From the sequence record NC_054924.1: 64,000 nt of DNA. One strand, given 5' to 3'. The notes under the pieces are model-generated. The model saw only the letters and a list, made by a program, of their open reading frames with translations. It had not been told where the DNA came from and made no database searches. Of this stretch, positions 36,563-40,184 are shown piece after piece; the first letter of the stretch is position 1, and the number at the start of each line of letters is the position of its first letter. The stretch comes from Escherichia phage vB_EcoM_Lutter. The position numbers were made by a program, and so were the translations under genes.

Positions 36563-36826
36563 TTATTCACTACCCGACATAGACGGCCCGCGCGGTGATA
36601 ATTCGGCATATTGTTTTTCCGTTAATACAGTAATATCGTAGTAACAGTCAGAAGAAGTTTTAACTGTGGAAATTTTATTGTCAAAATATTCACGAGTCAT
36701 TGTATGAGTATAGTATTTTTTACCATAAATGATAATAGGCTGTTCTGGTCCTGGAACTTCTAACTCGCTTGGGTTAGGAAGTGTAAAAAGAACAACGCCA
36801 GAAGTATCTTTAAATCGTAAAATCAT
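36563..36826 (-). CDS. Hypothetical protein (nrdA.2-like)
   Basis: 87 aa ORF. Confidence 0.5.
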
Positions 36827-37134
36827 ATTGCCATTTTCCCTTTAATTGCTGGATGCGATTCATAATTTTCAAGGATAAAATCTTTCGGTTTCATGTATTC
36901 AGTTAACCAGTAAAGCTGTGTTTCGGTGTCACAATTTCCAAACTCTATAGGCCAATCAATTTTAAGTTCACACAGTTCTTTAGGCTCACGACGTAAAATT
37001 TCTTTACATTGCTCAGTATGATTCATATAGATGTGAGTATTACCACCAGAAAATATCAAATCTCCTGGGATAAGATTACACATCTTAGCCACAATATGTG
37101 TCAAGGCAGCGTACGAGGCAATGTTGAACGGTAG
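36823..37134 (-). CDS. td: Thymidylate synthase, exon 2
   Basis: 3' splice site after ...ACATAATG; exon 2 begins CTACCGTTCAAC ([11 protein letters not shown]...). Confidence 0.9.
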
Positions 37135-38150
37135 CATTATGTTCAGATAAGGTCGTTAATCTTACCCCGGAATTATATCCAGCTACATGTCACCATGCAG
37201 AGCAGACTATATCTCCAACTTGTTAAAGCAAGTTGTCTATCGTTTCGAGTCACTTGACCCTACTCCCCAAAGGGATAGTCGTTAGGCATTTATGTAGAAC
37301 CAATTCCATTTATCAGATTTTACACGATAAGTAACTAATCCAGACGAAATTTTAAAATGTCTAGCTGCATCTGCTGCACATTCAAAAATAACCCCATCAC
37401 ATGAAATCTTTTTAATATTACTAGGCTTTTTACCTTTCATCTTTTCTGATATTTTAGATTTAGTTATGTCTGAATGCTTATGATTAAAGAATGAATTATT
37501 TTCACCTGAACGATTTCTGCATTTACTACAAGTATAAGCAGAAGTTTGTATGCGAACACCGCACTTACAAAACTTATGGATTTCTGGATTCCAACGCCCA
37601 TTTTTACTTCCGGGTTTACTGTAAAGAGCTTTCCGACCATCAGGTCCAAGTTTAAGCATCTTAGCTTTAACAGTTTCAGAACGTTTCTTAATAATTTCTT
37701 CTTTTAATGGATGCGTAGAACATGTATCACCAAACGTTGCATCAGCAATATTGTATCCATTAATTTTAGAATTAAGCTCTTTAATCCAAAAATTTTCTCG
37801 TTCAATAATCAAATCTTTCTCATATGGAATTTCTTCCAAAATAGAACATTCAAACACATTACCATGTTTGTTAAAAGACCTCTGAAGTTTTATAGAAGAA
37901 TGGCATCCTTTTTCTAAATCTTTAAAATGCCTCTTCCATCTCTTTTCAAAATCTTTAGCACTTCCTACATATACTTTATTGTTTAAAGTATTTTTAATCT
38001 GATAAATTCCGCTTTTCATAAATACCTCTTTGAATATAGAAGTATTTATTAAAGGGCAGTCCTACAATTTAGCACGGGATTGTCTACTAGAGAGTTTCCC
38101 CGTTTAGATAGATTACAAGTATAAGTCACCTTATACTCAGGCCTCAATTA
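37135..38150 (-). mobile_element. Group I self-splicing intron in td (1016 nt) carrying the I-TevI gene
   Basis: Intron 5' end TAATTGAGGCCTGAGTATAAGGTGACTTATACTTG and 3' end ...CATAATG match the td intron as I recall it; splicing the exons restores a 286-aa thymidylate synthase. Confidence 0.9.
37282..38019 (-). CDS. I-TevI: GIY-YIG homing endonuclease I-TevI (intron-encoded)
   Basis: 245 aa; N-terminal GIY-YIG (GIYQIKNTLNNKVYVGSA); lies wholly within the td intron. Confidence 0.95.
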   Translation of the reverse strand: MKSGIYQIKNTLNNKVYVGSAKDFEKRWKRHFKDLEKGCHSSIKLQRSFNKHGNVFECSILEEIPYEKDLIIERENFWIKELNSKINGYNIADATFGDTCSTHPLKEEIIKKRSETVKAKMLKLGPDGRKALYSKPGSKNGRWNPEIHKFCKCGVRIQTSAYTCSKCRNRSGENNSFFNHKHSDITKSKISEKMKGKKPSNIKKISCDGVIFECAADAARHFKISSGLVTYRVKSDKWNWFYINA

Positions 38151-38699
38151 ACCCAAGAAAACATCTACCGAACGTTGATACCACTGCAAATCCAAATAAC
38201 CATTACGCACATTAAACTGATAGAACATATGACAGGGCGGTAATGCCATTTGATTGATTTCAGCTGGATTCCATGCTGAAACGATTTGACGTCGATCAGT
38301 TGGTAATTTTTTAATACGATCAATAGTTTCAACTAATTGATCCACACCACCGAAATCACGCCATTGTTTACCGTATATAGGACCAAGTTCACCACTATGA
38401 TATCCTAGGTCTTTAGCTTGGTTTTCATAATTGTCATCCCAGATAGTTTTACCTTGAATAAGACTACCGTGAGTAAGAAGACGTAAATCATTAACATTGG
38501 TAGAACCGGAAATAAACCATAGAAGCTCAGCAATGCATGCATTCCAGGCGAGCTTCTTAGTTGTTACTGCAGGAAAACCTTTAGTTAAATCCCATCGTAA
38601 TTTAGTACCGAACAAAGCAATTGTTCCTGTGCCCGTTCGGTCATCGGTTTCATAGCCATTTTCAAAAATGTCTTTAATTAAATCTTGGTATTGTTTCAT
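38151..38699 (-). CDS. td: Thymidylate synthase, exon 1
   Basis: 183 codons ending ...VDVFLG; the in-frame stop TAA is provided by the first intron nucleotides. Confidence 0.9.
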
Positions 38700-38744
38700 T
38701 TAGTACCTTATATAAATTATAATACATTTTATGAAGCTGAATAA

Positions 38745-39092
38745 TCAATACGGTTTAGCATCAAATTTTCTCTCAATTTCAGGTGTGAAATATAATTCTT
38801 TACCGCGTTTGGAAAAGCGACCAATAATATGATAATTATTCTCATCAAACGTGATATTACCAATATCCATAGCTTTCAACCAAATATCGATATTTCTATC
38901 CAGCTTTATGTCAAAATTCCAATACGGAGAACTATTACCGAAAATACTACAAGCGGATTCAGTGAAACAGCTACTATAAATCTTGTCTTTAGGAACTACT
39001 AATTGATAGACACCTTTAATAAACTGAGGACCTTGCCATTTTGGCTGTTTCTCGTCTTTTTCTAATAGAATAGGGTAATAATTAAAATTCAT
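38745..39092 (-). CDS. Hypothetical 115-aa protein inserted between frd and td
   Basis: ORF with an ATG start in the frd-td spacer; no motif recognised. Confidence 0.5.
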   Translation of the reverse strand: MNFNYYPILLEKDEKQPKWQGPQFIKGVYQLVVPKDKIYSSCFTESACSIFGNSSPYWNFDIKLDRNIDIWLKAMDIGNITFDENNYHIIGRFSKRGKELYFTPEIERKFDAKPY

Positions 39093-39111
39093 ATTTCCGC
39101 CACGCGTTATT

Positions 39112-39932
<821 letters not shown>

Positions 39933-39941
39933 TATATTTCC

Positions 39942-40184
39942 TCAAACAGACTTTTTCACAATTTTCCAATCAGCTTTAAACTGTTCAACGTCAGAATGGT
40001 AAATCCAGAATCCTGCGCTTTCTCCGTCTTCATAAAGCGGACACCCATCACATTCATCTTCCCATCCCATATTACGCAAAAGATGTTCAGCTTTTTCAAC
40101 AAGTTCAGAATCTTTACCGATGATATTAAAATACCATTTACCTTTAACTTCCGAATCTTTGATGCTCTGACGTTGTAATCTCAT
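39942..40184 (-). CDS. Hypothetical protein (frd.2-like)
   Basis: 80 aa ORF. Confidence 0.5.
   Translation of the reverse strand: MRLQRQSIKDSEVKGKWYFNIIGKDSELVEKAEHLLRNMGWEDECDGCPLYEDGESAGFWIYHSDVEQFKADWKIVKKSV

Follow-up and report, generated by a model that had tools for sequence, protein, structure and literature searches.

The window analyzed here, a 64,000-nucleotide stretch of Escherichia phage vB_EcoM_Lutter (NC_054924.1), carries the frd and td genes on its minus strand, separated by 412 nt that hold a single ATG-initiated ORF of 115 codons on the same strand (ORF115; Table 1). ORF115 starts 19 nt past the frd TGA and ends 45 nt ahead of the td ATG. A sequence-only reading of this DNA had described a 115-aa ORF in a spacer of about 410 bp and a separate AAGG ribosome-binding site for td, and both are present, with the AAGG 6 nt 5´ of the td ATG. 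The same reading gave the frd stop and td start as overlapping (ATGA) in T4, which agrees with NC_000866: frd occupies 145109..145690, td ends at 145112, and the two genes share the 4 nt with no ORF between them.

The flanking genes are readily recognized. The name frd is carried by the matching gene in hundreds of phage records, and the layout of the td intron and I-TevI is that of T4, T6, RB7 and Bas37. An Rfam search of positions 36700..39800 at the gathering threshold missed the td group I intron, probably because the 738-nt I-TevI ORF splits the intron core; as Pfam clearly identifies I-TevI and the two td exons, the intron is very likely there.

Table 1. Features of the frd-td region and of related loci (window coordinates unless another record or locus is named)
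Feature	Position	Strand	Basis
frd.1	39942..40184		
80-aa ORF (phrog_4308, no assigned function); stop overlaps frd start	39690..39932	-	
frd, encoding a 193-aa dihydrofolate reductase; upstream gene of the operon	39112..39693	-	Pfam DHFR_1 PF00186, E 5e-19
Direct repeat copy 1, TAAATGAAAtAA: frd TGA stop and vestigial ATG-AAA-TAA mimicking the td start	39107..39118	-	
9-mer TAAATGAAA, copy at the frd end	39110..39118		
frd-ORF115 spacer, 19 nt; purine-rich Shine-Dalgarno-like GGCGGAAA directly 5´ of the ORF ATG	39093..39111	-	sequence
ORF115 (phrog_1928; RB32ORF229c; orthologue of bas37_0070), 13 kDa, predicted beta-rich, single-domain	38745..39092	-	
ORF115 stop codon	38745..38747	-	
ORF115-td spacer, 45 nt; sigma-70-like promoter match and td AAGG	38700..38744	-	consensus scan and sequence
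Sigma-70-like promoter match	38748..38719	-	consensus scan
td ribosome-binding site AAGG	38706..38709	-	sequence
Direct repeat copy 2, TAAATGAAAcAA: holds the td ATG	38691..38702	-	
9-mer TAAATGAAA, copy at the td start	38694..38702		
td exon 1, encoding residues 1-183 of thymidylate synthase	38148..38699	-	Pfam PF00303 Thymidylat_synt positions 1-175, E 2e-63
td group I intron (inferred) and td exon 2	36823..38147	-	Pfam domains
I-TevI within the td intron	37282..38019	-	Pfam GIY-YIG, I-TevI_ZnF and I-TevI_DNA-bd
td exon 2	36823..37137	-	Thymidylat_synt positions 176-266
T2 ORF115, intact	NC_054931.1 138755..139099 (L008 1501..1848)		
RB7 region of the lengthened frd	L007 897..1511		
F2 region of the lengthened frd	L011 594..1211		
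Gene C, SHFML-26	L013 900..1106		
Gene C, EcNP1	L014 1305..1511		
Gene C, metagenomic contig	L012 4670..4879		

A conserved gene of a family without assigned function

ORF115 is a conserved protein-coding gene. Among seven copies (the window, T2, T6, RB7, Bas42, SF and F2), pairwise dN/dS is 0.01-0.06, with at most 35 synonymous and 10-11 non-synonymous changes, and these ratios, together with recognizable homologues in many phage genera, mark ORF115 as more than a chance reading frame. The ORF itself was already known, being deposited in databases under many accessions: the exact protein of the window is in NCBI as "hypothetical protein" and an earlier name is RB32ORF229c.

When 1.84 billion representative proteins were searched with a profile, approximately 21 true relatives emerged, all single-domain proteins of 95-120 aa, and none outside T4-like phages. 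Two long profile matches (P0021 and P0024) that might have been taken for fusions were rejected as false positives, since they are repetitive sequences of eukaryotic type. Across 24 family members, with identity down to 26%, residues Q16, W19, G27, G91, K95 and G97 are invariant, and the motifs LLExDxxQKKW, HGIYxLxF, GNIxFD and IIGRFxKxGxxxxFxP recur. The sole family match is the PHROGs profile phrog_1928 (E 3.1e-36, residues 4-111 aligned to positions 2-125 of 126); sequence and profile searches of Pfam, NCBIfam, PADLOC and PDB were empty, with 0 PADLOC families at E up to 1, which accords with the earlier statement that the protein has no recognizable motif. The phrog_1928 family, which includes RB32ORF229c, bas37_0070 and the paralogue B described below, resembles ORF115 in size, in motifs and in its place 3´ of frd, and ORF115 differs from it in nothing, being an ordinary member of a family without assigned function. 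Neither the 64-kb window nor the T4 segment contains a further paralogue. Literature searches under phrog_1928, RB32ORF229c or the protein accessions found no publication, and the SegB/T6 paper (PMC13096335) does not deal with the frd-td ORF locus.

An ancestral slot and the T4 junction

We found the ORF115 protein at 90% identity or more in approximately 361 Tequatrovirus records, including T2, T6, RB7, RB18 and RB27, and homologues of 25-45% identity in a further 227 phage records (both by tblastn). In at least six other Tevenvirinae genera the homologue, at 30-45% identity, lies directly 3´ of frd, and in many of these cases the genes B and C described below precede td. The loci examined came from Tequatrovirus, Mosigvirus SF, Kanagawavirus IME523, Jiaodavirus JY1, Gelderlandvirus STML-198, Moonvirus Merlin, Pectobacterium phage PM2, IMG/VR contigs and one Logan metagenome contig. 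In 21 of these 22 loci a gene of the ORF115 type (A) directly follows frd, the exception being the SHFML-26 locus, which has only gene C, and in all 21 the order is Frd, A, optionally B, optionally C, Td. B is a paralogue of A (hhalign probability 98.8%, E 1e-16) and likewise belongs to phrog_1928, while C encodes 68-69 aa and belongs to phrog_9550. Stop and start codons of the genes in this slot overlap in most loci. The frd-ORF spacer of the window is missing in other genera, where the start of the ORF overlaps the frd stop, and the ORF-td spacer is not conserved, being 13-15 nt in SF and F2 and replaced by an overlap in other genera. The frd-td interval is thus a slot for up to three small genes, of which Tequatroviruses have three alleles: A only (the window and the approximately 361 records above), C only (for example SHFML-26 and EcNP1) and none (the T4 type).

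Several observations on individual phages accompany this distribution. The C protein is basic, has no Pfam match and takes the place of ORF115 in many Tequatroviruses, overlapping the stop of frd as well as the start of td. The full arrangement frd-A-B-C-td occurs in a metagenomic contig (L012) and in two IMG/VR loci (L019 and L020). In the T2 RefSeq record the ORF is intact and 99% identical but was left unannotated, and a hypothetical protein is annotated at the same site in MH751506 and PV958097. In RB7, two extra A's before the frd stop cause a frameshift, such that Frd is annotated as 11 aa longer and the lengthened frd overlaps the ORF115 start; in F2 and SF, too, a longer frd runs into the start of the ORF. 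The ORF115 alleles of SF (L010, Mosigvirus) and F2 (Tequatrovirus) differ by one amino acid, with dS 0.12, and are 92-93% identical to the common Tequatrovirus allele. This near-identity across assigned genera suggests that the region was exchanged between genera or that the classification is questionable.

The T4 junction can be derived from that of the window in a single step. The 9-mer TAAATGAAA occurs twice in the window, at the end of frd and at the start of td, and the copies match at 11 of 12 positions when extended to 12 nt. In an alignment of the window with T4, T2 and RB7, removal of the 416 bp between the repeats gives the T4 junction exactly, and the simulated 50-nt string is found verbatim in T4. 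We counted T4-type junctions with a 36-nt probe, used in view of the fact that BLAST pieces of a 201-nt probe get joined across the insert. Just 32 records have this junction, compared to the approximately 361 with the ORF; carriers are T4 and its laboratory derivatives, RB55, RB59, vB_EcoM_112, HY03, SG1, G28, F1, FN, JEP6, FL12, FL18 and G2133.

Since the gene is found at the same place 3´ of frd in other genera, T4 represents the derived state, and ORF115 is ancestral in the frd-td operon. On the strength of these comparisons, T4 and a handful of relatives very probably lost ORF115 by a 416-bp deletion between the TAAATGAAA copies, by which the stop of frd would have been joined to the start of td. 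The parsimonious reading is that the T4 lineage underwent one repeat-mediated deletion, rather than that Lutter gained an insertion, for which outgroup genera carrying the gene are the opposite of what is needed. The sequence-only reading had taken the ORF for a lineage-specific insertion; this did not hold, as the ORF is the majority state and occupies the same site in other genera, and the direction of the event is best corrected to a deletion in T4. The junction alignment across T-even genomes that it proposed shows a widespread ORF from which T4 departs by the 416 bp, and the ORF is absent from T4, as it had supposed, and is conserved in relatives. T4 is the reference for the whole phage family, and a gene deleted in T4 is invisible in classical genetics.

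Host-specific requirement for the Bas37 orthologue

Functional information comes from an orthologue. In Bas37 (MZ501089), bas37_0070 lies between td and frd, flanked by spacers of 19 and 45 nt as in the window, and encodes a protein identical to ORF115 at 114 of 115 residues. This phage was included in a HIDEN-SEQ phage Tn-seq preprint, whose Extended Data Table 7 is the source of the values given here (bioRxiv 10.1101/2025.11.20.689424). On E. coli K-12, insertions were recovered in 34 of the 36 TA sites of bas37_0070, which was scored "Non-essential" (bioRxiv 10.1101/2025.11.20.689424), consistent with the accessory status that had been proposed from sequence. In competitive infections, expressed as log2 fold change (log2FC) relative to the K-12 control, bas37_0070 was unaffected on four clinical strains (CFT073 +0.40, CFE299 +0.18, CFE303 -0.09 and CFE331 +0.16; adjusted P 1) and in the presence of a cloned Mokosh type I system (+0.02, adjusted P 1) (bioRxiv 10.1101/2025.11.20.689424). 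On the uropathogenic strain CFE336, the mean count fell 25-fold, from 372.4 to 14.1 (log2FC -4.62, adjusted P 0.00000) (bioRxiv 10.1101/2025.11.20.689424). Thus, a near-identical orthologue of ORF115 is strongly required on one clinical host and is non-essential on K-12.

Ten genes were significant on CFE336, of which td, dmd and bas37_0260 were enriched (bioRxiv 10.1101/2025.11.20.689424). The depleted genes were those for the beta-alpha-glucosyltransferase (log2FC -7.70), PseT (-7.58), bas37_0070, Srd (-3.44), Cef (-3.37), bas37_0225 (-1.52) and rIIB (-0.99). The depletion of bas37_0070 was the third strongest overall and the strongest among genes without assigned function. On the same host, frd and td had values of +0.37 and approximately +1.5 (bioRxiv 10.1101/2025.11.20.689424), and the phenotype is therefore due neither to polarity on td nor to loss of Frd or Td function. 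The authors of the preprint nowhere name bas37_0070 (bioRxiv 10.1101/2025.11.20.689424). As a side observation, insertions in td and I-TevI (bas37_0068 and bas37_0069) were enriched relative to K-12 on several clinical strains, with log2FC +2.6/+1.9 on CFT073 and +2.0/+1.3 on CFE331, which points to a greater cost of losing phage td on K-12 BW25113 than on those clinical hosts.

A gene that is dispensable on K-12, on four clinical strains and in the presence of Mokosh, and that is required on CFE336 where frd and td are not, reads most naturally as a host-specific counter-defense or host-range factor. We lean toward this assignment for ORF115, as a candidate that would act independently of Frd and Td enzymatic function, and class it with phage accessory host-range or counter-defense genes on that footing. 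The pattern of an anti-defense gene, dispensable on a permissive host and required on one other, is seen for the orthologue in these literature data. The possibility of an anti-host factor, one of those raised by the sequence-only reading, fits the sole functional data there are, the conditional essentiality of bas37_0070 on CFE336.

In our model, ORF115 is a genuine, presumably expressed gene and an old resident of the Tevenvirinae frd-td operon. Its product, a mildly basic, aromatic-rich single domain, probably acts by binding something, and could in this way neutralize or bypass something present in CFE336-like hosts, independently of what Frd and Td do as enzymes. The obstacle is most likely an immune system. 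One candidate target is the predicted Lamassu-Cap4 nuclease system, the one defense system selected for cloning from CFE336 (bioRxiv 10.1101/2025.11.20.689424). Another could be an RNA- or tRNA-directed system, which we consider because PseT and Cef are also required on this strain. The best overall explanation, and in our judgment a probable one, combines an ancestral gene, a deletion in T4, and a non-enzymatic protein with a host-specific counter-defense or host-range role.

The closest parallels are the T-even anti-defense proteins NrdC.1 (against Septu) and Bas37_0203 (against Druantia III), which were also found by conditional essentiality (bioRxiv 10.1101/2025.11.20.689424). ORF115 is of the same type in being small, without known domain or structural neighbor, dispensable on K-12 and required on one defense-rich clinical host. 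Its candidate role is proposed from Tn-seq, whereas NrdC.1 and Bas37_0203 have been paired with Septu and Druantia III, and it differs from most such anti-defense genes in its fixed position, its translational coupling to a metabolic gene in most genera and its very slow evolution.

[quoted passage not shown] A more far-reaching proposal is that ORF115 represents a new, structurally unprecedented Tevenvirinae family of counter-defense proteins against CFE336 immunity (Lamassu-Cap4 or an unrecognized system), that its loss is part of the reason T4 fails there, and that the frd-td interval is a slot for anti-defense cassettes. We offer this as a tentative idea that, taken as a whole, is possible and somewhat doubtful.

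Being ancestral, constrained and required on one clinical strain, ORF115 is a testable candidate for a host-range determinant, which is of relevance to phage-therapy cocktails assembled from T4-like phages. A specific defense target and a new inhibitory mechanism, if confirmed, would raise its importance. What we consider new is the likely polarity of the T4 deletion, the A/B/C structure of the slot, the rejection of the endonuclease label discussed below, a confident predicted fold for an orphan protein, and the connection of the Lutter gene to a host-specific requirement, a phenotype that sat unremarked in a supplementary table of the preprint.

Predicted fold and alternative roles

AlphaFold2 with the 24-sequence family alignment gave a model with pLDDT 90.1 and pTM 0.83; an earlier model with 4 sequences (pLDDT 61) was set aside in its favor. 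The predicted strands span residues 6-12, 27-34, 62-64, 80-82, 86-96 and 99-104, with a helix at 68-77, giving the order beta1-beta2-(variable loop)-beta3-alpha-beta4-beta5-beta6. The loop at residues 40-60 is more variable in sequence and is modeled with lower confidence. Family members are mildly basic (pI 7-9.4) and aromatic-rich, and conservation falls on basic or aromatic residues (K, R, W, Y, F). The predicted fold is a small beta-barrel-like domain and not a nuclease fold. Its weak structural neighbors, none of them significant, are nearly all OB-fold nucleic-acid binders: Teb1, Cdc13, RPA, S1, SSB and the anticodon-binding domains of aminoacyl-tRNA synthetases. With no catalytic motif and no significant structural neighbor, binding is a more likely activity than catalysis, and we take ORF115 for a small binding domain without a catalytic signature, possibly a very divergent OB-like barrel.

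These features raise the possibility that ORF115 is an OB-like RNA or DNA binder that serves the phage's own nucleic-acid transactions, with counter-defense an indirect effect. Such a protein might shield tRNA or mRNA or assist in their repair, or it might cover DNA ends or forks, and it would matter only where the host attacks these molecules. OB-fold domains of the RPA/SSB/S1/Teb1 type share with ORF115 the predicted order of elements (beta1-beta2-beta3-alpha-beta4-beta5, with the helix between strands 3 and 4), a size of approximately 100 aa and basic or aromatic conserved residues. The RNA-repair kinase PseT and the tRNA-maturation factor Cef are co-required on CFE336, and Lamassu, predicted in CFE336, senses DNA ends (PMC12663957). 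No one of these hints is significant alone, and we treat the idea as a mechanistic sub-hypothesis that is unlikely as it stands.

The main rival to a counter-defense or host-range role is a place for ORF115 in the thymidylate/folate module as an auxiliary subunit or adaptor, for example one that bridges or stabilizes Frd and Td in the dNTP-synthesizing complex, the conserved position between the two genes reflecting stoichiometric co-production. The invariant gene order, the overlap of stop and start codons seen in most genera, the very strong purifying selection and the confinement of homologues to T4-like phages would all be expected of such a partner. However, T4 and at least 12 natural relatives are viable without ORF115, with nearly identical flanking Frd and Td, and on K-12 insertions are tolerated better in the ORF (mean count 372) than in frd (117) or td (approximately 30) (bioRxiv 10.1101/2025.11.20.689424). 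Moreover, on CFE336 the loss of frd or td is harmless or even beneficial, whereas loss of the ORF is costly. This asymmetry contradicts a mere helper of Frd and Td, and we regard this role as quite improbable.

A free-standing homing endonuclease or its remnant, a selfish element inserted between frd and td, is a further reading; the sequence-only reading had named homing-endonuclease passengers as an option, and ORF115 is labeled "putative homing endonuclease" in the BASEL phage records. Indeed, the label "hypothetical" or this mistaken one is attached to the gene in hundreds of genomes. The presence/absence polymorphism within Tequatrovirus, the adjacency of I-TevI and the string GVYQL..KIYSS, superficially like GIY..YIG, all invite the label. 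GIY-YIG enzymes such as I-TevI and Seg do share with ORF115 a local GxY-hydrophobic strand motif and an on/off presence between T-even genes, but ORF115 has neither a GIY-YIG nor a DNA-binding domain and its predicted fold is a different one. None of the 24 family members has a Pfam match at E up to 1, whereas I-TevI, as a positive control with the same Pfam library in separate scans, matched GIY-YIG at E 2e-18; hhalign of the family against I-TevI gave a probability of 0.6% over 8 columns. The "YIG" half is not conserved, with only G27 and Y29 kept, a protein of 115 aa is too small to include a DNA-binding domain, and the predicted fold is beta-rich and barrel-like. Across genera the gene keeps a fixed, syntenic position instead of a sporadic one, dN/dS is approximately 0.03, and the indel boundaries are those of a simple repeat-mediated deletion. 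We therefore rejected a GIY-YIG identity, there being no PF01541 match and no conserved YIG, Arg or Glu catalytic positions, as well as an HNH endonuclease, for which there is no Pfam or NCBIfam match and no His, Asn or Cys among the invariant columns; a homing endonuclease is hardly credible. Of the sequence-only interpretation as a whole, the absence from T4, the accessory status and the anti-host option stand, and the insertion and the endonuclease passenger fall.

Lastly, the interval could be a regulatory spacer that gives td a promoter and a ribosome-binding site, the ORF being incidental. The sigma-70-like match (TTGATT-18-TATTAT, overlapping a TATAAT and with its -35 hexamer overlapping the ORF stop codon) and the AAGG 5´ of td fit this idea, but promoter-like matches are not enriched (15 observed compared to 9.5 +/- 3 expected), other genera as well as SF and F2 keep the ORF though the 45-nt spacer is missing, selection acts at the codon level, and the Tn-seq data place the phenotype in the ORF itself, insertions in td being tolerated; we give a mere spacer next to no credence and rejected it. 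The promoter match is not conserved in other genera, and its absence from T4 would follow from the deletion. The difference between insertions in the Bas37 ORF and those in td fits with td having its own promoter or with a non-polar transposon.

The frd-td interval is not the only polymorphic position in this region. The slot between frd.1 and frd, which in the window is filled by the 80-aa phrog_4308 ORF, contains an unrelated 81-aa ORF in T2 and a 71-nt spacer alone in T4.
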